A DNA stretch of 64,000 nt, from assembly GCF_011045215.1 (NCBI RefSeq), contig NZ_CP049201.1; one strand, 5' to 3'. Each line of letters starts with the position of its first letter. The first letter of the stretch is position 1. Position numbers and translations under genes: made by a program. This document shows positions 9,060 through 33,036 of this stretch, piece after piece. The notes below the pieces were generated by a model that had not been told where the DNA came from, searched no databases, and saw nothing but the letters and a program-made list of their open reading frames with translations. This stretch comes from Escherichia coli (GTDB lineage Bacteria; Pseudomonadota; Gammaproteobacteria; Enterobacterales; Enterobacteriaceae).

Positions 9060-9100
9060 CTGTAAATATCCTGGCATTAGTAATGCCAGGATATTTACAG
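9060..9100. repeat. Perfect 41-bp palindrome (20-bp arms) between convergent ykgG and ykgH
   Basis: ctgtaaatatcctggcatta g taatgccaggatatttacag read directly; no U-tract on either side, so not a canonical intrinsic terminator. Confidence 0.7.
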
Positions 9101-9195
9101 TGAAAAAGACAGGCATCCATTCCTGAAAACGGGTTCCCTTCCCGGTCATTGTCACTTCAGCTTTATACAGGCACTCTCTATCAGAATGCTGTTTA

Positions 9196-9864
9196 TTACT
9201 GCCCAGAGTTTTGTTGGTATTCATCTACCATTTTTTTGACAAGGCAAAACATTACAGAAATTACAATGCTTATAAAAAATCCCAGAGCTAGGTAAATGGC
9301 AGCAGGGTATTTATTTTTTATTTCTGGTGAGCTTATAGTTACACAGCCATCACCGTTTGGATACAATGACCAGTTCCTGGTCAGGTATATCATTTTTGTA
9401 TAAAGCTCACTGTTAATTGCTGAAGGCGTTTGTATCTCATCGAGAACTTGCCTGCCATTATGGTATTCTGACGCATACCATTTGATAATAGACGCCTGCA
9501 CGTGAGATATTTCCGCTTCAGCAGTTGGTAAATCTCTCTTATCTCCTGACCATTCCAGCTTTATTTCTCTGTTCTTGACATCTGGGCTGGTGTGAAAAAA
9601 TGTAGTAATTCGCTGAATAACATCTTCAGTCATTGTGGTCTGACAGGCAAAGTTATTATTGCTATCACAGTTAACAAGTATACCTGGCGTTGTCTGGTTT
9701 ATTTTTAGGCTGTAAATCACTTTTATATTGTCTTTATTGATATACAGAAACAACAGCACCATAGCCATACATATAGCCATAATAAAAAGGATAACACGAA
9801 TCTTTTTCTTCAGATAAAATAAAATCTCAATCAGATCGATATCCTGTTTGATTTGTTCACTCAT
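9196..9864 (-). CDS. ykgH: Inner-membrane protein YkgH (one N-terminal and one C-terminal hydrophobic segment)
   Basis: 222-aa AT-rich ORF; hydrophobic stretches at residues ~22-42 and ~190-210. Confidence 0.85.
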   Translation of the reverse strand: MSEQIKQDIDLIEILFYLKKKIRVILFIMAICMAMVLLFLYINKDNIKVIYSLKINQTTPGILVNCDSNNNFACQTTMTEDVIQRITTFFHTSPDVKNREIKLEWSGDKRDLPTAEAEISHVQASIIKWYASEYHNGRQVLDEIQTPSAINSELYTKMIYLTRNWSLYPNGDGCVTISSPEIKNKYPAAIYLALGFFISIVISVMFCLVKKMVDEYQQNSGQ

Positions 9865-10057
9865 AATATATCCAGAAAATAAAATCTGCCGCAGATAAAT
9901 GAATTAATAGTCTGTATCAGGAATGTTCGGGTTAAATATCAGCAAAAAGCCAGCATCATGAATACTGGATATGAAGCATGAGAGTTACCTCAGTGTTTAT
10001 ATAAGGATTCGGCCCCCCTCTCTGGAACGGTAACTCTCAATCTGATCGGTTCCTGCG

Positions 10058-13961: not shown

Positions 13962-15995
13962 ATGACAGACCTTTCACACAGCAGGGAAAAGGACAAAATC
14001 AATCCGGTGGTGTTTTACACCTCCGCCGGACTGATTTTGTTGTTTTCCCTGACAACGATCCTGTTTCGCGACTTCTCGGCCCTGTGGATTGGCCGCACGC
14101 TGGACTGGGTTTCTAAAACCTTCGGTTGGTACTATCTGCTGGCGGCAACGCTCTATATTGTCTTTGTGGTCTGTATCGCTTGTTCGCGTTTTGGTTCGGT
14201 GAAGCTCGGGCCAGAACAATCCAAACCGGAATTCAGCCTGCTGAGTTGGGCGGCGATGCTGTTTGCTGCCGGGATCGGTATCGATCTGATGTTCTTTTCC
14301 GTAGCCGAACCGGTAACGCAGTATATGCAGCCGCCGGAAGGCGCGGGACAGACGATTGAGGCCGCGCGTCAGGCGATGGTCTGGACGCTGTTTCACTACG
14401 GCTTAACCGGCTGGTCGATGTATGCGCTGATGGGCATGGCGCTCGGATACTTTAGCTATCGTTATAATTTGCCGCTCACCATCCGCTCGGCGCTGTACCC
14501 GATCTTCGGTAAACGGATTAACGGGCCGATAGGTCACTCAGTGGATATTGCGGCGGTGATCGGCACTATCTTCGGTATTGCCACTACGCTCGGTATCGGT
14601 GTGGTGCAGCTTAACTATGGCTTGAGCGTACTGTTTGATATTCCCGATTCGATGGCGGCAAAAGCGGCACTGATCGCCTTGTCGGTGATAATCGCCACTA
14701 TCTCGGTGACATCCGGTGTCGATAAGGGCATTCGCGTGTTATCGGAACTTAACGTTGCGCTGGCGCTGGGGCTGATCCTGTTCGTGTTGTTTATGGGCGA
14801 CACTTCGTTCCTGCTTAATGCACTGGTGCTGAATGTTGGCGACTATGTGAATCGCTTTATGGGCATGACGCTCAACAGTTTTGCCTTCGACCGTCCAGTT
14901 GAGTGGATGAATAACTGGACGCTCTTCTTCTGGGCATGGTGGGTGGCATGGTCGCCGTTTGTCGGCTTGTTCCTGGCGCGTATCTCGCGTGGGCGTACCA
15001 TTCGCCAGTTCGTGCTGGGCACGTTGATTATTCCGTTTACCTTCACGCTGTTATGGCTCTCGGTGTTCGGCAATAGCGCGCTGTATGAAATCATCCACGG
15101 CGGCGCGGCATTTGCCGAGGAAGCGATGGTCCATCCGGAGCGCGGCTTCTACAGCCTGCTGGCGCAGTATCCGGCGTTTACCTTTAGCGCCTCTGTCGCC
15201 ACCATTACTGGCCTGCTGTTTTATGTGACCTCGGCGGACTCCGGGGCGCTGGTGCTGGGGAATTTCACCTCGCAGCTTAAAGATATCAACAGCGACGCCC
15301 CCGGCTGGCTGCGCGTCTTCTGGTCGGTGGCGATTGGCCTGCTGACGCTCGGCATGCTGATGACCAACGGGATATCCGCGCTGCAAAACACCACGGTGAT
15401 TATGGGGCTGCCGTTCAGCTTTGTGATCTTCTTCGTGATGGCGGGGTTGTATAAATCTCTGAAGGTAGAAGATTACCGCCGTGAAAGTGCCAACCGCGAT
15501 ACCGCACCGCGACCGCTGGGGCTTCAGGATCGCCTGAGCTGGAAAAAACGTCTCTCGCGCCTGATGAATTATCCGGGCACGCGTTACACTAAACAGATGA
15601 TGGAGACGGTCTGTTACCCGGCAATGGAAGAAGTGGCGCAGGAGTTGCGGTTGCGCGGCGCGTACGTGGAGCTAAAAAGCCTGCCACCGGAAGAGGGACA
15701 GCAGTTGGGTCATCTGGATTTGTTGGTGCATATGGGCGAAGAGCAAAACTTTGTCTATCAGATTTGGCCGCAGCAATATTCGGTGCCGGGCTTTACCTAC
15801 CGCGCACGAAGCGGTAAATCGACCTACTACCGGCTGGAAACCTTCCTGTTAGAAGGCAGCCAGGGCAACGACCTGATGGACTACAGCAAAGAGCAGGTGA
15901 TCACCGATATTCTTGACCAGTACGAGCGGCACCTTAACTTTATTCATCTCCATCGTGAAGCGCCGGGCCATAGCGTGATGTTCCCGGACGCGTGA
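13962..15995 (+). CDS. betT: High-affinity choline transporter (BCCT family)
   Basis: 677-aa ORF, multi-pass membrane protein with long hydrophilic C-terminal tail; divergent from betIBA. Confidence 0.95.
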   Translation: MTDLSHSREKDKINPVVFYTSAGLILLFSLTTILFRDFSALWIGRTLDWVSKTFGWYYLLAATLYIVFVVCIACSRFGSVKLGPEQSKPEFSLLSWAAMLFAAGIGIDLMFFSVAEPVTQYMQPPEGAGQTIEAARQAMVWTLFHYGLTGWSMYALMGMALGYFSYRYNLPLTIRSALYPIFGKRINGPIGHSVDIAAVIGTIFGIATTLGIGVVQLNYGLSVLFDIPDSMAAKAALIALSVIIATISVTSGVDKGIRVLSELNVALALGLILFVLFMGDTSFLLNALVLNVGDYVNRFMGMTLNSFAFDRPVEWMNNWTLFFWAWWVAWSPFVGLFLARISRGRTIRQFVLGTLIIPFTFTLLWLSVFGNSALYEIIHGGAAFAEEAMVHPERGFYSLLAQYPAFTFSASVATITGLLFYVTSADSGALVLGNFTSQLKDINSDAPGWLRVFWSVAIGLLTLGMLMTNGISALQNTTVIMGLPFSFVIFFVMAGLYKSLKVEDYRRESANRDTAPRPLGLQDRLSWKKRLSRLMNYPGTRYTKQMMETVCYPAMEEVAQELRLRGAYVELKSLPPEEGQQLGHLDLLVHMGEEQNFVYQIWPQQYSVPGFTYRARSGKSTYYRLETFLLEGSQGNDLMDYSKEQVITDILDQYERHLNFIHLHREAPGHSVMFPDA

Positions 15996-16008
15996 TTGTT
16001 ATTGCATA

Positions 16009-16046
16009 AAACCGCGCCATGTTTGCATATGGCGCGGTTTCTCTTA
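16009..16046 (+). terminator. Candidate intrinsic terminator downstream of betT
   Basis: aaaccgcgccat / atggcgcggttt 12-bp GC-rich stem with 8-nt loop, followed by ctcttacc (weak U-tract). Confidence 0.5.
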
Positions 16047-16870
16047 CCTCTTGATACGTTATATCTGTACGGTTAAGCCCTTAGTATCGATTGATGATTG
16101 CCAGGCAACAGATAATAAAAAAGAAAAGAACTATTGAAGCCCAAAACCTACATTTGGACTGTTGTGAATGTTCAATAAGCTTAGTCTTATTTAATGTAAA
16201 TATTGGTGCTAATTTGAAATGACGCTTTATTCATGGGGAACGCGTAGCGCAAATCAACTAAAATCAATGTAACCGTTTGTTGTTTAAGGTTTAATTGTCT
16301 GTGTCTGATATTTTATTGATTGTTTTAAATATTGTTTTTATTGTCATTGTTATAATGTTGGCTATCTATTGCTGAATGGATTCAGTCTTAAAAGGCAGGT
16401 TGTTAAGGGATAGGCATAGAGTAATGACGTGTATGCATAACCAACATCTTTACTCATTATGTCATTGAATGTTGACGCTATGTGTTTATGAGGTTGAGGT
16501 ATTTTCAGTTGATCTGGATTGTTAAATTCATATAATGCGCCTTTACTCATGAGTGGGCATCAATACGTAGTGGGAAATTATAAATATCGAAATAGTCCAA
16601 CTACTTCTTCATTACCAAAAATGAGTATCTGAATTTTAATATTGCATTCTTGCGTGATTATCTCCTGAGTTTGACTTGTGATTACCTTTTTAAGGTATTT
16701 AGCGTAACTGTTTTTGAGCGAGCATCAGAGGTAAAGATAATCTTCTTGATAGTGATGTGGGATGTTATACGTATGGCATCGCTAATGTTTATGGTTACCC
16801 CTTATGTGTGCTCAGGAATCCACAGGTAATCACTCATACTGAACAGCGATAAAAGATAAAAGGTGTGTTC

Positions 16871-17959
16871 ATGAATTCATGTGATTTTCGTGTTTTTCTG
16901 CAAGAGTTCGGTACAACGGTTCATTTGTCATTGCCTGGTAGCGTATCCGAGAAAGAACGACTGCTACTCAAGCTGCTGATGCAGGGAATGTCTGTAACAG
17001 AAATATCACAGTACAGAAATCGCAGTGCAAAGACAATTTCACATCAAAAGAAACAGCTCTTTGAGAAACTGGGGATTCAGAGCGATATTACTTTCTGGCG
17101 CGATATTTTCTTTCAGTACAATCCGGAGATCATATCCGCCACGGGTAGTAATAGTCATAGATATATTAATGATAATCACTATCACCATATCGTCACGCCT
17201 GAAGCCATCAGTCTGGCGTTGGAAGACCACGAATTCAAACCGTGGATCCAACCGGTTTTCTGCGCGCAGACTGGGGTACTGACGGGCTGTGAGGTGCTTG
17301 TCCGCTGGGAACATCCACAAACGGGAATTATCCCACCGGATCAGTTTATTCCTCTGGCGGAGTCATCCGGTCTTATTGTCATAATGACCCGCCAACTGAT
17401 GAAACAGACTGCGGATATTCTGATGCCGGTAAAACATTTGCTGCCGGATAATTTCCATATTGGTATCAACGTCTCGGCGGGTTGTTTTTTGGCCGCGGGA
17501 TTTGAAAAAGAATGCCTGAATCTGGTCAAGAAATTAGGAAACGATAAAATCAAACTGGTTCTCGAGCTAACGGAACGTAACCCTATTCCGGTAACGCCAG
17601 AAGCCAGAGCGATATTTGACAGCCTTCATCAGCACAACATTACCTTTGCGCTGGATGACTTTGGTACGGGTTATGCGACCTATCGTTATCTGCAGGCGTT
17701 TCCGGTCGATTTTATTAAGATCGATAAGTCATTTGTGCAAATGGCGAGTGTCGACGAAATCTCCGGTCATATTGTGGACAATATTGTCGAACTGGCGCGT
17801 AAGCCTGGTCTGAGTATCGTAGCGGAAGGGGTAGAGACCCAGGAGCAGGCGGATTTAATGATCGGTAAAGGCGTTCACTTTTTGCAGGGCTATTTGTACT
17901 CCCCGCCAGTTCCGGGTAATAAATTTATCTCTGAATGGGTAATGAAAGCAGGTGGTTGA
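16871..17959 (+). CDS. pdeL: c-di-GMP phosphodiesterase PdeL (LuxR-type HTH + EAL domain)
   Basis: ORF 16865..17959; start at ATG 16871 (MNSCDFRVFLQEF), 362 aa; N-terminal LuxR HTH and C-terminal EAL domain (ELTE, DDFGTGYA). Confidence 0.95.
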   Translation: MNSCDFRVFLQEFGTTVHLSLPGSVSEKERLLLKLLMQGMSVTEISQYRNRSAKTISHQKKQLFEKLGIQSDITFWRDIFFQYNPEIISATGSNSHRYINDNHYHHIVTPEAISLALEDHEFKPWIQPVFCAQTGVLTGCEVLVRWEHPQTGIIPPDQFIPLAESSGLIVIMTRQLMKQTADILMPVKHLLPDNFHIGINVSAGCFLAAGFEKECLNLVKKLGNDKIKLVLELTERNPIPVTPEARAIFDSLHQHNITFALDDFGTGYATYRYLQAFPVDFIKIDKSFVQMASVDEISGHIVDNIVELARKPGLSIVAEGVETQEQADLMIGKGVHFLQGYLYSPPVPGNKFISEWVMKAGG

Positions 17960-27477: not shown

Positions 27478-28527
27478 ATGAAGATCAAAGCTGTTGGTGC
27501 ATATTCCGCTAAACAACCACTTGAACCGATGGATATCACCCGGCGTGAACCGGGACCGAATGATGTCAAAATCGAAATCGCTTACTGTGGCGTCTGCCAT
27601 TCCGATCTCCACCAGGTCCGTTCCGAGTGGGCGGGGACGGTTTATCCCTGCGTGCCGGGTCATGAAATTGTGGGGCGTGTGGTAGCCGTTGGTGATCAGG
27701 TAAAAAAATATGCGCCGGGCGATCTGGTCGGTGTCGGCTGCATTGTCGACAGTTGTAAACATTGCGAAGAGTGTGAAGACGGGCTGGAAAACTACTGTGA
27801 TCACATGACCGGCACCTATAACTCGCCGACGCCGGACGAACCGGGCCATACTCTGGGCGGCTACTCACAACAGATCGTCGTTCATGAGCGATATGTTCTG
27901 CGTATTCGTCACCCGCAAGAGCAGCTGGCGGCGGTGGCTCCTTTGTTGTGTGCAGGGATCACCACGTATTCGCCGCTACGTCACTGGCAGGCCGGACCGG
28001 GTAAAAAAGTGGGCGTGGTCGGCATCGGCGGTCTGGGACATATGGGGATCAAGCTGGCCCACGCGATGGGGGCGCATGTGGTGGCATTTACCACTTCTGA
28101 GTCAAAACGCGAAGCGGCAAAAGCCCTGGGGGCCGATGAAGTTGTTAACTCACGCAATGCCGATGAGATGGCGGCTCATGTGAAGAGTTTCGATTTCATT
28201 TTGAATACAGTAGCTGCGCCACATAATCTCGACGATTTTACCACCTTGCTGAAGCGTGATGGCACCATGACGCTGGTTGGTGCGCCTGCGACACCGCATA
28301 AATCGCCGGAAGTTTTCAACCTGATCATGAAACGCCGTGCGATAGCCGGTTCTATGATTGGCGGCATTCCAGAAACTCAGGAGATGCTCGATTTTTGCGC
28401 CGAACATGGCATCGTGGCTGATATAGAGATGATTCGGGCCGATCAAATTAATGAAGCCTATGAGCGAATGCTGCGTGGTGATGTGAAATATCGTTTTGTT
28501 ATCGATAATCGCACACTAACAGACTGA
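27478..28527 (+). CDS. yahK: NADPH-dependent aldehyde reductase (Zn-dependent MDR/ADH family)
   Basis: 349-aa ORF; zinc-ADH signature GHEIVGRV, structural Zn Cys cluster (CKHCEECEDGLENYC), Rossmann GxGxxG (VGIGGLG). Confidence 0.95.
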   Translation: MKIKAVGAYSAKQPLEPMDITRREPGPNDVKIEIAYCGVCHSDLHQVRSEWAGTVYPCVPGHEIVGRVVAVGDQVKKYAPGDLVGVGCIVDSCKHCEECEDGLENYCDHMTGTYNSPTPDEPGHTLGGYSQQIVVHERYVLRIRHPQEQLAAVAPLLCAGITTYSPLRHWQAGPGKKVGVVGIGGLGHMGIKLAHAMGAHVVAFTTSESKREAAKALGADEVVNSRNADEMAAHVKSFDFILNTVAAPHNLDDFTTLLKRDGTMTLVGAPATPHKSPEVFNLIMKRRAIAGSMIGGIPETQEMLDFCAEHGIVADIEMIRADQINEAYERMLRGDVKYRFVIDNRTLTD

Positions 28528-28769
28528 AAAAATTAATAAATACGTTGTGGTTTAACATATTAACTTCGCTCTCCACTTAACTTTTTAGTTAAGGAGAGCG
28601 AAATAATATCAAAGTAGCAGTAAAACCTATAACGTAAATTCAAATTGTTAAATTAACTCCCTCCAGTACACAATACTTCACACGTTAGTTATGAGCGATT
28701 TCTGATAGTGCCTGGTTTAATCAGAGCTTTATTATCTGCGACGTTTATTTTTATTTAAGAGAGATCGCG

Positions 28770-29585
28770 ATGATATCATTAAAAGCTCCGCACAATAATT
28801 TGATGCCATATACGCAACAAAGCATACTTAATACGGTTAAAAACAATCAGTTACCAGAGGATATCAAAAGCTCCCTGGTTTCCTGTGTCGATATATTCAA
28901 GGTTTTGATTAAACAATATTATGATTATCCTTATGATTGTCGTGATGATTTAGTCGATGACGACAAACTCATTCATCTCATGGCTGCCGTACGAGACTGT
29001 GAGTGGTCAGACGATAACGCACTCACCATAAATGTGCAGTTTAATGATTTCCCTGGATTTTATGACTGGATGGATTACCCTGATCACCCGGTTAAGTTTG
29101 TTTTTCGCATACTTGAAAATCAAAAAGGGACAGTTTGGGTATATGACCAGGATGATGCGTTTCTTGATATTAAAGCAAATGTGCAGGCTGGACGCTTTAC
29201 CGGGCTTAAGAAATTAGTGCAGTTTATCGATTCAGTGCGAACAGATTGCAAATGTATTCTTCTTGAACACCATATGCCTTTGCTGAGAATTTTCCCTAAA
29301 GGGAAAGAGTGTATGCATGTGGAAAAATGGCTTCGCGAAATGTCGTCTATTCCGGAGACAGACGCGCCCATTAAGCAGGCGCTTGCGCATGGATTATTAT
29401 TACACTTAAAAAATATCTACCCTGTTTTTCCTGAATCACTGGTGATGTTATTGCTCTCTGTTCTGGACGTAAAAACATACAGAGATGATGCGCGATTAAA
29501 TCAATGGATATCTAATAGAGTCCAGGAATTAGGTGACAGATATTATCCTGTAAATAAGCACGTTAAAATCCGCTACACTCTTTAG
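28770..29585 (+). CDS. yahL: Uncharacterised protein YahL (no recognisable domain)
   Basis: 271-aa ORF in an AT-rich segment. Confidence 0.7.
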   Translation: MISLKAPHNNLMPYTQQSILNTVKNNQLPEDIKSSLVSCVDIFKVLIKQYYDYPYDCRDDLVDDDKLIHLMAAVRDCEWSDDNALTINVQFNDFPGFYDWMDYPDHPVKFVFRILENQKGTVWVYDQDDAFLDIKANVQAGRFTGLKKLVQFIDSVRTDCKCILLEHHMPLLRIFPKGKECMHVEKWLREMSSIPETDAPIKQALAHGLLLHLKNIYPVFPESLVMLLLSVLDVKTYRDDARLNQWISNRVQELGDRYYPVNKHVKIRYTL

Positions 29586-29996
29586 GTCAGAAAGGGTTCC
29601 ACCTGCAAGTTGTTATTCCACCAGAGAGTGAATCGCAATGCAGGTAATCATTTCATCTGTATATCTGTATGCCACTGGCATTCCATCTCTTTTTTCGCCG
29701 ATATTTTGTTGTGATCGGCGACACTTCGCTTAAAAAAGCACCAGTAGTGGTTTCGCAGCCATGCGGTGTATAAAAAATGATCTCATGCAGATGTTTTGTG
29801 AATGTGTGGGTTGACATTCATATGAAAAAAATCATAATTCCATCATGTTTGTGTGGGGTCTTTTCTGTATCTTACGCATCGCACTCAAGCCTGACAGAAA
29901 ATATGCTGTAAGGCTCATATCAAAAACCGCCATTAGCTCATCAGGAAGAGCAGACGACAACCAGGATTGTTGTATGGTACGGGGTTCGAGGCCTCG

Positions 29997-30242
29997 ATGG
30001 CGGTCCAACTTTTCAAAACTCTTCTGAATCAGATCCCCTTATTATCATCCCTGCAAAGTGGAATATTGCCATTGTTTGGCTATTCAGGACGGGTCAGACC
30101 AATGAAAAAAGCCCACACAGGGGAGAGTGGGCTGAAATGGGAAGCTAAAGACTCAAGTAAACTTATCGGAAATAAGGACCACGCATTACGGGGGCTATCA
30201 TCGCCGATGGTCGGGATTCGGCAAATCAGGTTGATTACGTAG
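29997..30242 (+). CDS. yahM: Small uncharacterised protein YahM
   Basis: ORF 29967..30242; start placed at internal ATG (MAVQLFKTLLNQ...), 81 aa. Weak call. Confidence 0.5.
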   Translation: MAVQLFKTLLNQIPLLSSLQSGILPLFGYSGRVRPMKKAHTGESGLKWEAKDSSKLIGNKDHALRGLSSPMVGIRQIRLIT

Positions 30243-30258
30243 AGAGTAAATTATCTGC

Positions 30259-30930
30259 TCACCGCTGCGTCACACCTTCGTAAATCAGGCGTAGCGCGAA
30301 TACACCAATAATTGCACCAATAACCCGACTGGCAACGCGTTGCATACGCCCATAAGCACGACGCACAGCGGGCAAAGAAAACGCCTGACTAAGAAAAACT
30401 CGCCAGATAATTGATGCGAGCACAATCCCCGCCCAGGCCATTAAACGTGCCCATGTTGGTGTTTCGGCATTTAATGTTACTGAGAAAATACTGATAAAAA
30501 ATAAAACGGTTTGCGGGTTAGAGAGATCGGTAATTAATCCACGGCGAAAAAAGACATACCAGGGGGCGCTAATCGGTTGTTGTAGTGTGCTCATTTGCGG
30601 TGTTGACTGGCGGCGCATGCTGCACCACGCAAACCATAAGAGATAAGCGCCGCCGACGATTCTGATAAGCGAAAAAATCTCCTCACACTGCGTAATTAGT
30701 GTTGCAAGACCAAACAAACCCAACCCGGAATAAAATGCATCGCCCAGCGCCACGCCCAGCCCGGTCAGCACCCCTGCGCGTCGACCGGAAGCCAGGCTGG
30801 TTTGTACTACCACAAAGAGATTGGCTCCCGGATTAAAAAAAGTAATCACGAACAGTCCTACGGTCAGGTAAACGGCGTGCAAAGGATCCATAGTGATTTC
30901 ATCCATAAATAAGTGAAGTAACTTCATCAT
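30259..30930 (-). CDS. yahN: LysE/RhtB-family amino-acid exporter
   Basis: 223-aa hydrophobic ORF, LysE-type translocator topology. Confidence 0.9.
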   Translation of the reverse strand: MMKLLHLFMDEITMDPLHAVYLTVGLFVITFFNPGANLFVVVQTSLASGRRAGVLTGLGVALGDAFYSGLGLFGLATLITQCEEIFSLIRIVGGAYLLWFAWCSMRRQSTPQMSTLQQPISAPWYVFFRRGLITDLSNPQTVLFFISIFSVTLNAETPTWARLMAWAGIVLASIIWRVFLSQAFSLPAVRRAYGRMQRVASRVIGAIIGVFALRLIYEGVTQR

Positions 30931-31352: not shown

Positions 31353-31449
31353 TTCTGAACCCTATGTAAACATCCCCGATGCGTAAGTTTATCGGTGATC
31401 ATCTATTGAAATTTATGCCGGATAAAGCGTTCGCGCTGCATTCGGCAGT

Positions 31450-33036
31450 TCAGTTTTTCAGCCGCCGCCAGAACGTCGTCCGGCTTATGCCTAAATAATT
31501 CGCCGCTGCTGTTTTATCGCCTTTAAATTTCTCCAGTGCCTGTTGTGGTGTCAGTAAGCGTGGAGCGGGAATTTTCGCCGACTCGCGCGCCAGTTCCGGC
31601 AGTAGCAGCTGCAAAAACTGCGGCGTTAAATCCGGCGTCGGTTCCACACTTAAAAACAGCGCCAGTCGCTCCATCATATTGCGCAGTTCACGAATATTAC
31701 CTGGCCAGTCGTAGCGCAGCAGCACAGTTTCACTTGCCTGTAACCCCTGGCGTAATGCAGCAGAAAATGGGGCGGAGAGCGCCGCCAGAGACACTTTCAA
31801 AAAGCTTTCCGCCAGTGGCAGAATATCTGCCACCCGCTCGCGCAGTGGTGGCAATTGCAGACGCAAAATACTCAGCCGATAAAACAGATCACGGCGAAAC
31901 TGCCCTTGCCGCATATCTTCTTCCAGATTGCAGTGAGTGGCGCTAATGACCCGCACATCCACCGGAACAGGCTGATGCCCGCCGACGCGAGTAACCTCTT
32001 TTTCTTCCAGCACCCGTAACAGGCGAGTCTGCAAAGGTAGCGGCATTTCGCCAATCTCATCCAAAAACAGCGTGCCACCGTGGGCGATTTCAAACAGCCC
32101 GGCACGACCTCCGCGTCGCGAGCCGGTAAACGCCCCTTCCTCATAGCCAAACAGCTCCGCTTCCAGCAGCGATTCGGCAATCGCCCCGCAGTTGACGGCA
32201 ACAAATGGATGCGACTTTTTGCCCTGTCGCGCATCGTGGCGGGCAAAATATTCCCGATGAATTGCCTGGGCCGCCAGCTCTTTGCCCGTCCCCGTTTCCC
32301 CCTCAATCAACACCGCTGCACTGGAGCGGGCATACAGCAAAATAGTCTGCCGTACTTGTTCCATCTGTGGTGATTGACCGAGCATATCGCCCAGCACGTA
32401 ACGAGTTCTCAGGGCGTTGCGGGTGGCATCGTGAGTGTTATGGCGTAACGACATGCGCGTCATATCCAGCGCATCGCTGAACGCCTGGCGCACGGTGGCG
32501 GCGGAATAGATAAAAATTCCGGTCATTCCGGCTTCTTCTGCCAGATCGGTAATCAACCCCGCGCCGACCACCGCTTCGGTGCCGTTAGCTTTTAGCTCGT
32601 TAATCTGCCCGCGTGCGTCTTCTTCGGTAATGTAGCTACGTTGATCGAGGCGCAAATTAAAGGTTTTTTGAAACGCCACCAGTGCCGGAATAGTTTCCTG
32701 ATAAGTGACAACGCCGATAGAAGAGGTGAGCTTTCCGGCTTTTGCCAGTGCCTGTAACACATCGTAGCCGCTCGGTTTAATCAAAATAACTGGCACTGAC
32801 AGGCGGCTTTTCAGGTACGCGCCGTTAGAGCCAGCGGCGATGATGGCGTCGCAGCGTTCGTTTGCCAGTTTCTTGCGGATATAGGTCACTGCTTTTTCAA
32901 AGCCAAGCTGAATAGGGGTAATGTTCGCCAGGTGATCAAACTCGAGGCTGATATCGCGAAACAGCTCGAACAGGCGCGTTACAGATACCGTCCAGATAAC
33001 CGGTTTGTCGTCATTCAGCCGTGGTGGATGTGCCAT
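31450..33036 (-). CDS. prpR: Sigma-54-dependent activator of propionate catabolism (AAA+ enhancer-binding protein)
   Basis: ORF 31450..33048; start at ATG 33036 ([13 protein letters not shown]), 528 aa; Walker [15 protein letters not shown] sigma-54 contact motif, C-terminal HTH. Confidence 0.95.

Follow-up and report, generated by a model that had tools for sequence, protein, structure and literature searches.

The interval between yahK and yahN of Escherichia coli was analyzed within a 64,000-nucleotide (nt) stretch of contig NZ_CP049201.1 (assembly GCF_011045215.1; hereafter the window), with the focus on positions 28770–30242, which hold the open reading frames (ORFs) yahL and yahM, and on an 81-nt tRNA-like element identified in the spacer between them. 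The gene order in the window is the yahK-yahL-yahM-yahN-yahO-prpR order of E. coli, and RefSeq records 99.0–99.7% identical to it over 28528–30258, including that of K-12 MG1655, carry the yahL and yahM labels. A first-pass annotation, made from the letters alone, had placed two ORFs of 271 and 81 amino acids (aa) between yahK and yahN, with long spacers at 28528–28769 (242 nt) and 29586–29996 (411 nt), all of which proved accurate; the tRNA-like gene at 29927–30007 had been overlooked. The yahM end of the interval contains the following features.

29811–29838, plus strand: predicted sigma-70 promoter, TTGACA-16 nt-CATAAT, matching 11 of 12 consensus positions in a promoter scan
29845–29926, plus strand: putative leader of about 80 nt, its start deduced from the promoter; moderately conserved
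29927–30007, plus strand: tRNA-like RNA gene, 81 nt, predicted to be non-decoding (ARAGORN, fold, argN homology and conservation)
29997–30242, plus strand: yahM ORF, 81 aa from ATG, judged a chance ORF
30008–30103, no strand: hypervariable spacer directly 3' of the CCA, unalignable among E. coli, E. albertii and Escherichia sp. E1V33
30104–30133, minus strand: rho-independent terminator of yahN, AGCCCAC-loop-GTGGGCT followed by TTTTTT, kept in E. coli, the cryptic-clade genome L010 and E. albertii

The element is the sole ARAGORN call in the 64 kb, where it is reported as 'tRNA-Ser(gga)'. Its minimum-energy fold is a cloverleaf with the canonical features of a tRNA body, namely a perfect 7-base-pair (bp) acceptor stem (ccgccat/atggcgg), U8, a 4-bp D stem (gctc/gagc) with A14, G18G19 and A21, and a 5-bp T stem (cgggg/cctcg) with the loop ttcgagg, in which T54-T55-C56 and A58 are conserved, followed by a discriminator U and an encoded CCA. 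At the anticodon position the fold has a 7-bp hairpin (acgacaa/ttgttgt) with a 6-nt loop, and a canonical anticodon arm (5-bp stem, 7-nt loop, U33, purine 37) is not formed; in the alternative arm drawn by ARAGORN, 5 nt separate the D stem from the anticodon stem, position 33 is A and position 37 is U. The Rfam tRNA model (RF00005, gathering threshold 29 bits) gave no match to the element at E ≤ 1 in a 5-kb search nor at E ≤ 10 in 481 nt, the same tool scoring true tRNAs at 65–74 bits and the Citrobacter sedlakii orthologue at 32.9 bits. No Rfam family covers the element, and no match was obtained to the Y RNA or transfer-messenger RNA (tmRNA) families.

The stems of the element are so nearly invariant that its structure rests on tRNA homology and on a single G·U-to-G-C change, and the central arm aligns poorly across the family. 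A functional, decoding tRNA-Ser(GGA), as the ARAGORN call and the intact acceptor stem, D arm, T arm and CCA might suggest, is hardly credible: the spacing between the stems, A33, U37 and the preferred 6-nt loop speak against it, as do the lack of the long variable arm that bacterial tRNA-Ser has, the silence of the Rfam tRNA model, and orthologues with a tetraloop or different 'anticodons'. Indeed, the anticodons that ARAGORN assigns to near-identical orthologue bodies disagree (Ser gga, Arg acg, Gln ttg, Leu gag, Leu taa and '??? gg'). Judged by its sequence, the element has no usable anticodon loop and cannot read codons.

Conservation and relatives of the tRNA-like element

Conservation was assessed in an alignment of five lineages, namely E. 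coli, an E. coli strain lacking yahL, L010, E. albertii and E1V33, among which the synonymous divergence (dS) of yahK is about 0.6. None of the 81 columns of the element varies, compared with 28% of those in the 140 nt upstream and 82% of those in the 140 nt downstream, and E. coli, L010, E. albertii and E1V33 share one and the same 81-mer. The absence of any change at this dS, while the flanks diverge, indicates that the element is under strong purifying selection. Among E. coli records, 4821 of 5170 carry an element that is 100% identical, the 1.7-kb neighborhood being mostly 90–99% identical, and in the O157:H7 variant the G·U pair of the T stem has become G-C. E. albertii has kept the element, though only short 3' remnants of yahK and no YahK match were found there, with a 460-aa, yahJ-sized ORF upstream.

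Relatives were sought by scanning one genome per species for exact copies of the element's first 20 nt, and their extraction also required the 3' acceptor strand. They occur in Citrobacter, Klebsiella, Salmonella enterica subsp. arizonae and diarizonae and one further enterobacterium, and share the acceptor, D and T arms as well as an ACGAC/GTTGT central stem. Their central loops differ (TTTT, GTAC, ATAC, CTGGAA, CGGGAT) and their discriminator base is U, C or A depending on the genus, which argues against a single aminoacylation identity and against a loop-mediated antisense role. Within Citrobacter and within Klebsiella, 1–3% of the element's columns vary, compared with 45–89% in the flanks, and the Citrobacter copies (L013, L018, L019, L021) come with their own GC-rich terminator and with boxes resembling a promoter.

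The neighborhoods of these copies are non-syntenic and variable in each genus. The Citrobacter copies converge on a chromosomal class A beta-lactamase gene that is followed by a LysR-family regulator, and those of the Klebsiella oxytoca group have a DsbD-like gene on one side and a LysR-family gene on the other. Copies of K. spallanzanii, C. koseri and one further enterobacterium are situated 2–3 nt upstream of tRNA-Thr(UGU). A strong match to the Rfam small RNA STnc100 (101 bits) was observed in an uncultured enterobacterium (L023, 1226–1437), downstream of a cluster of the tRNA-like element, tRNA-Thr and tRNA-Gly. The S. enterica subsp. arizonae copy (L017, 739–6888) is about 500 nt from one of three tRNA-Asn genes, and the 159-aa ORF lying between them is by eye a candidate integrase fragment; the locus resembles a hot spot of island integration.

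By blastn, the element is homologous to argN, the middle gene of the ileZ-argN-argO cluster of lambdoid and Shiga toxin (Stx) phages, with identities of 85% to an unannotated phiP27 sequence (E = 6e-18), 81% to mEp460 and 75% to the true tRNA-Arg(UCG) argN of 933W. The acceptor and D stems are the same as in argN of 933W and in the pseudo-copies of phiP27, mEp460 and pHX138, the T arm is nearly so and the CCA is encoded, with 81–85% identity to the pseudo-copies; the ACGAC/GTTGT central stem of the window copy is shared by the anticodon-less phage forms. These likenesses identify the element as a genuine tRNA homologue by descent, related to phage argN. argN of 933W has a normal UCG anticodon loop, and the phage pseudo-copies, most of them in decay, carry a loop of 11 nt. 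By contrast, the Escherichia copy is invariant; it is chromosomal, set between yahK and yahN, without ileZ or argO neighbors or phage genes. When membership of the ileZ-argN-argO cluster, which in prophages lies downstream of Q or a DNA methylase, was judged by the flanks, those of the element scored against phage flanks no better than shuffled sequences did (z about −1 to 0). A MAFFT alignment had hinted at ileZ and argO as the decayed sources of the leader and the downstream spacer, respectively, an origin rejected because local alignment scores did not exceed those of shuffles (z about −1 and 0). An E. coli plasmid copy beside phage-like genes bears the label 'tRNA-OTHER' from the Prokaryotic Genome Annotation Pipeline (PGAP), and at least 120 loci in IMG/VR prophage contigs have the anticodon-less form flanked by ileZ and argO, often with obvious signs of decay.

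This kinship gives rise to the main rival explanation, in which the tRNA-like sequence is a dead, functionless pseudo-tRNA left by an ancient lambdoid prophage or island. The homology to argN, the decay of most anticodon-less phage copies, the hypervariable DNA directly 3' of the element, as at integration hot spots, the position of the S. enterica subsp. arizonae copy beside tRNA-Asn genes and the existence of one E. coli strain with an IS1 in the element would all fit such a neutral relic. Hard to reconcile with it is the lack of any change in 81 positions at a dS of about 0.6 while the leader and the spacer diverge. The element has also been retained in E. albertii near remnants of yahK, and in E. 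coli despite the adjoining insertion described below; its promoter is conserved; Citrobacter and Klebsiella show parallel conservation, along with a dedicated terminator and boxes resembling a promoter; the tRNA body persists in full, unlike attachment-site (att) remnants, which retain the 3' half; and the flanks have no significant similarity to ileZ or argO. We therefore regard the relic as unlikely.

Promoter, expression and the yahM open reading frame

The predicted promoter at 29811–29838 is the only site with 11 of 12 consensus positions in 28500–30300, and its −35 box is invariant across Escherichia. A promoter of yahM, for which no coordinates were given, was found to be experimentally active and repressed by IHF in a Reg-Seq study (10.1101/2025.05.13.653802), 'yahM' figures among the transcripts of a small-RNA-enriched pool (10.1101/2019.12.16.878389), and the convergent yahM and yahN transcripts were reported to overlap (PMC12288877). 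A tRNA-like RNA is mentioned in none of the three papers, and no link between yahM and a tRNA or tRNA-like RNA was found in the searchable literature, subscription papers and database notes lying outside it. Expression of the tRNA-like RNA is thus only indirectly supported. A 29-aa ORF, MKKIIIPSCLCGVFSVSYASHSSLTENML, with a signal-peptide-like N-terminus (29822–29911, plus strand), overlaps both promoter and leader; it is probably a chance ORF, since a 1-nt deletion destroys its ATG in E. albertii.

The first 11 nt of yahM are the last 11 nt of the tRNA-like element, after which the frame runs through the hypervariable spacer and into the terminator and 3' untranslated region (UTR) of yahN; called mechanically, the ORF starts at a TTG at 29967 and encodes 91 aa. 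An Rfam model likewise aligned with the terminator at 30104–30133 through its own terminator portion. In L010 and E. albertii the yahM frame is interrupted by 1-nt indels lying within a block conserved at the nucleotide level, causing a frameshift in L010, and the ORF is absent from E1V33. A CAG-to-TAG change at codon 12 stops it in O157:H7, where PGAP calls a 69-aa ORF only. Against the yahL-less E. coli strain, yahM has a nonsynonymous divergence (dN) of 0.016 and a dS of 0, all three substitutions being nonsynonymous. Because the frame is broken, stopped or absent in relatives and its substitutions against the yahL-less strain are exclusively nonsynonymous, yahM is very probably not a protein gene but an annotation artefact, in line with the suspicion of the first-pass annotation that the call was weak and could be non-coding.

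The opposite view, that yahM encodes a real small protein of 81 aa, or of 46 aa from the internal ATG at 30102, can point to an ORF that is intact in most E. coli genomes and named 'protein YahM' by PGAP, to a GAGG motif 5 nt upstream of the ATG and to changes of the 'yahM' transcript in several published studies. However, in the tRNA-like fold the GAGG falls in the T-loop, the transcript data fit an mRNA, the tRNA-like RNA or the yahN 3' UTR alike, and YahM has neither homologues nor protein families. With the disrupted frames and the nonsynonymous-only substitutions, these observations render a YahM protein very unlikely.

yahL and the AT-rich insertion

The left part of the interval and its flanking genes comprise the following features.

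27478–28527, plus strand: yahK, Zn-dependent, NADPH-dependent aldehyde reductase, left flank, with a host-typical GC of 0.53 (ORF and RefSeq annotation of 99% identical DNA)
28565–28602, no strand: long, imperfect inverted repeat (ttcgctctcc...ggagagcgaa) just 3' of yahK, read from the letters
28602–29788, no strand: AT-rich insertion carrying yahL, GC about 0.39; bounds approximate, the left one within about 65 nt (pairwise blastn and alignment)
28764–29598, no strand: 835-bp indel comprising yahL, 6 nt upstream and 13 nt downstream
28770–29585, plus strand: yahL, 271 aa, protein-coding, an Escherichia-restricted orphan without recognizable family or fold
30259–30930, minus strand: yahN, LysE family exporter/transporter, right flank, convergent with the tRNA-like unit (ORF and RefSeq annotation)

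The mean GC of the window is 0.520 (standard deviation 0.058, 800-bp windows), and a trough of 0.32–0.43 extends over 28350–29850, compared with 0.53–0.59 in yahJ and yahK. The yahK-yahL spacer has a GC of 0.318 (z −3.5) and yahL one of 0.390 (z −2.2), with a third-position GC (GC3) of 0.386 versus 0.537 in yahK. Further right, GC is 0.431 in 29586–29810 and 0.568 in the tRNA-like element of the same spacer, and the GC3 of yahM is 0.50. AT-richness is a property of yahL and its flanks and not of the whole of yahM, so that the first-pass description of the entire segment as AT-rich held in windowed GC and GC3 for the former and failed at the yahM end. Two further AT-rich troughs of the window, at about 15900–16900 and 9100–10000 (800-bp GC 0.34 and 0.36), are deeper than that of yahL.

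The DNA at approximately 28602–29788 is present in E. coli and L010 and has no counterpart at the locus in E. albertii (L007) or in E1V33 (L024; there from 28537). Pairwise blastn of the yahK-yahN interval showed that the block 29789–30015 (~90% identity) and yahN are kept in both. Since E. albertii and E1V33 lack the AT-rich DNA and yet retain this block and yahN, the yahL-bearing DNA is an insertion specific to the E. coli/L010 lineage, placed between yahK and an older unit. Positions 28555–28601 align with E. albertii at 82% (pairwise blastn), and the inverted repeat at 28565–28602 is part of the ancestral yahK 3' region, outside the insertion.

At the insertion boundaries we found no terminal, direct or inverted repeats, no att site and no mobility gene; the only repeat candidate, a 28-nt direct repeat of 71% identity (28525 and 29823), was too weak to interpret. 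A phage source of YahL was not detected by tblastn in phages. A plasmid origin was rejected, the plasmid matches being 95–100% identical E. coli DNA on F-prime-sized or chromosome-sized records, and so was a defense origin, for which PADLOC gave no match. Horizontal acquisition of the yahL DNA is plausible from its composition and distribution rather than demonstrated; that earlier claim gains from the missing counterpart in E. albertii and E1V33 and gains nothing from mobility genes, att sites, repeats or a phage source.

A larger version of this claim sees in the whole of 28770–30242 a single island of old horizontal acquisition, silenced by H-NS and holding two orphan ORFs. The AT-richness of yahL and its flanks, the restricted taxonomic range and very low expression of YahL, and the peaks of RNA polymerase holoenzyme within yahL in genomic SELEX (systematic evolution of ligands by exponential enrichment; PMC5493296), which are typical of AT-rich DNA, are compatible with it. 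The yahM half is already contradicted by the ~90% identity of 29789–30015 in E. albertii and E1V33, which lack yahL; moreover, the tRNA-like part has a GC of 0.57, the 3' half of yahM is the conserved yahN terminator and 3' UTR, and neither an integrase, an att repeat nor a phage source of yahL came to light. A single acquired block of this kind is improbable, the yahM end being older, genus-wide and not AT-rich.

A second event affected yahL itself. The locus was present in 5176 of 5426 complete E. coli genomes, at least 80% of it in 4021 according to coverage classes, and the region is near-complete in only 74% of all 5426 genomes. Positions 28764–29598 are missing in 1155 of the 5176 locus-bearing genomes (~22%), the junction in strain SCU-108 reading ...aagagag|ccacctgc..., with no direct or inverted repeats at the edges of the 835-bp event. 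Because the yahL-less strains retain both AT-rich flanks of the insertion, this absence is most simply a secondary deletion. Several human isolates and one strain named as uropathogenic E. coli (UPEC) are among the sampled yahL-less strains. A published quantitative polymerase chain reaction (qPCR) assay proposes yahL as a 'conserved signature' and universal marker of E. coli/Shigella (PMC11057252). The amplicon of that assay falls within the segment 28764–29598, which is cleanly deleted in about 22% of locus-bearing complete genomes.

Compared with its L010 orthologue, in which all 271 codons are intact and 80% of the amino acids identical, yahL has a dN of 0.110 and a dS of 0.661, and the resulting dN/dS of 0.17 identifies it as a genuine protein gene under purifying selection; dN/dS of yahK against L010 and E1V33 is 0.03. 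Neither YahL nor YahM had an above-threshold match in Pfam, PHROGs, PADLOC, NCBIfam or the sequences of PDB, in agreement with the first-pass reading of both as lacking any recognizable motif. For YahL, sub-threshold Pfam traces (SDH_protease, WWE_5 and DUF2931; E 0.002–0.08) were taken as noise and the PHROGs traces were sub-significant (E = 0.043, and 0.068 for the paralogue described below), while a kinship with DUF2686 (YjfZ/YjiC) was rejected at an hhalign probability of 0.1%.

The phylogenetic distribution of YahL, which the first pass had listed as a check, was narrow. Searches of 5.8 and 1.8 billion proteins returned homologues from E. coli and Shigella plus a few diverged copies, all from Escherichia, including one form 88% and one 80% identical, both labelled E. 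coli. The most distant relative is a paralogue of 26% identity (P0027); its neighbors are iadA, yjiC and an invasin-like gene, and the DNA of its genome, 91–94% identical to that of E. coli, assigns it to another Escherichia species. It occupies L034 6001–6828 (GCA_009799345.1), between an iadA/yjiG-like cluster and a 1350-aa invasin/intimin-like gene, with a DUF2686 (YjiC-like) orphan gene about 4 kb away; the locus may be a second niche of the YahL family. A candidate diverged homologue of 49–51% identity (P0010) was instead read as a frameshift-ridden copy of the yahL locus; the metagenome contig from which it stems follows E. coli in its gene order, yahK-yahN-yahO-prpR, and has neighbor genes that are split.

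YahL is present at less than 1 part per million (ppm) by ribosome profiling, and transposon insertions in yahL alter fitness (bioRxiv 10.1101/038851); yahL is still counted among the uncharacterized 'y' genes of E. coli (PMC11551758), and no H-NS data for yahL were found in the searchable literature. With its low GC, lineage restriction, orphan protein and very low expression, the yahL part resembles H-NS-silenced AT-rich islets, from which it differs in having no mobility genes or repeats and only a single gene.

Beyond yahN, the yahO-prpR interval holds a sub-threshold match to Rfam naRNA4 (31416–31474, plus strand; 27 bits, E = 0.078), read as an ordinary repetitive extragenic palindromic (REP) element with the palindrome GCCGGATAA...GCATTCGGCA.

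A probable three-layer interval and the possible role of its RNA

We hold it rather probable that the yahK-yahN interval is a mosaic of three layers, one of them a constrained RNA gene. This reading draws on the observed anatomy, homology and conservation of the element, the observed lack of coding constraint on yahM and the observed history of insertion and deletion. The ancestral Escherichia order would have been (yahK)-promoter-leader-tRNA-like RNA-yahN, with the tRNA-like gene transcribed from its own near-consensus sigma-70 promoter. Cleavage by RNase P at C29927 and 3' trimming to the encoded CCA would release an RNA of about 81 nt that keeps the 'elbow' formed by acceptor, T and D arms and, with a hairpin in place of the anticodon arm, would not decode. 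Its most likely role would be that of a tRNA mimic outside translation, its elbow and acceptor end contacting some tRNA-binding factor; titration of, or signaling through, a tRNA-binding enzyme, a toxin or a defense factor are examples of the jobs it might perform. An insertion of some 1.2 kb of AT-rich, yahL-bearing DNA between yahK and the promoter would then have followed in the lineage of E. coli; yahL is a genuine, fast-evolving and very weakly expressed gene, later deleted in part of the species. 'yahM' would be the open frame that runs from the 3' strand of the tRNA-like element through unconstrained spacer to the yahN terminator and 3' UTR. The yahL half would accordingly be an ordinary orphan gene on an AT-rich insertion, and the yahM half a non-decoding tRNA-like RNA.

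The further-reaching proposal, that the genus Escherichia, K-12 included, expresses from an IHF-controlled promoter an anticodon-less tRNA mimic with a non-translational job, hidden under the name yahM, is put forward tentatively and at somewhat less than an even chance. Several points tell against the three-layer reading with its RNA gene. Transcription from 29811–29838, tRNA-type processing to an 81-nt species and any function are deduced from the DNA, and 29811–29838 is probably, by our own equation of the two, the active 'yahMp' of Reg-Seq. The near-invariance of the stems leaves essentially no covariation support, and the sole stem changes, from G·U to G-C in the T stem of O157:H7 and some phage copies, are one-sided. 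The central hairpin has a loop that differs from genus to genus, and the constancy across genera of the first 20 nt and of the 3' acceptor strand is partly a matter of ascertainment, which leaves the comparison within Escherichia unaffected. Phage copies have decayed by loss of the T-loop, truncations and acceptor mismatches, so that the family is not constrained everywhere. Finally, one E. coli strain (DETEC-S792, NZ_CP116067.1; L159, 2501–3347) tolerates an IS1 in the T arm of the element, a natural knock-out.

Comparison with known systems places the element apart from several of them. The bacterial Y RNA YrlA and tmRNA contain modules with an acceptor, T-arm and D-loop elbow and no anticodon arm, which are handled by tRNA enzymes. 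The element is unlike them in that it matches neither in Rfam, is tRNA-sized with nothing attached, has no G3:U70 and does not lie in an rsr/rtc neighborhood. ptwF, pauD and pawZ of E. coli K-12 are partial 3' duplicates of tRNAs beside recognizable cryptic prophages, from which the element differs by its full-length body, its own conserved promoter and the absence of a prophage. In Bacillus cereus, which belongs to a different phylum, tRNA-Other is a predicted, non-translating pseudo-tRNA located by variable or island DNA; it has a deletion phenotype, and a regulatory role instead of decoding has been proposed for it (Rogers et al. 2012, PMC3399842). Its likeness to our element is one of analogy.

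If the RNA is expressed and functional, an RNA gene would have been lacking from the best-annotated bacterial genome, with a spurious protein gene standing where it lies. As a protein, yahM would drop out of the set of uncharacterized genes (the y-ome), and array or RNA-seq signals attributed to 'yahM' would need to be re-read; published effects on the 'yahM' transcript, as well as the fitness effect of transposon insertions in yahL, may report on this RNA. A family of non-decoding tRNA mimics shared by enterobacterial chromosomes and lambdoid phages would thereby be open to experiment in the easiest of organisms.

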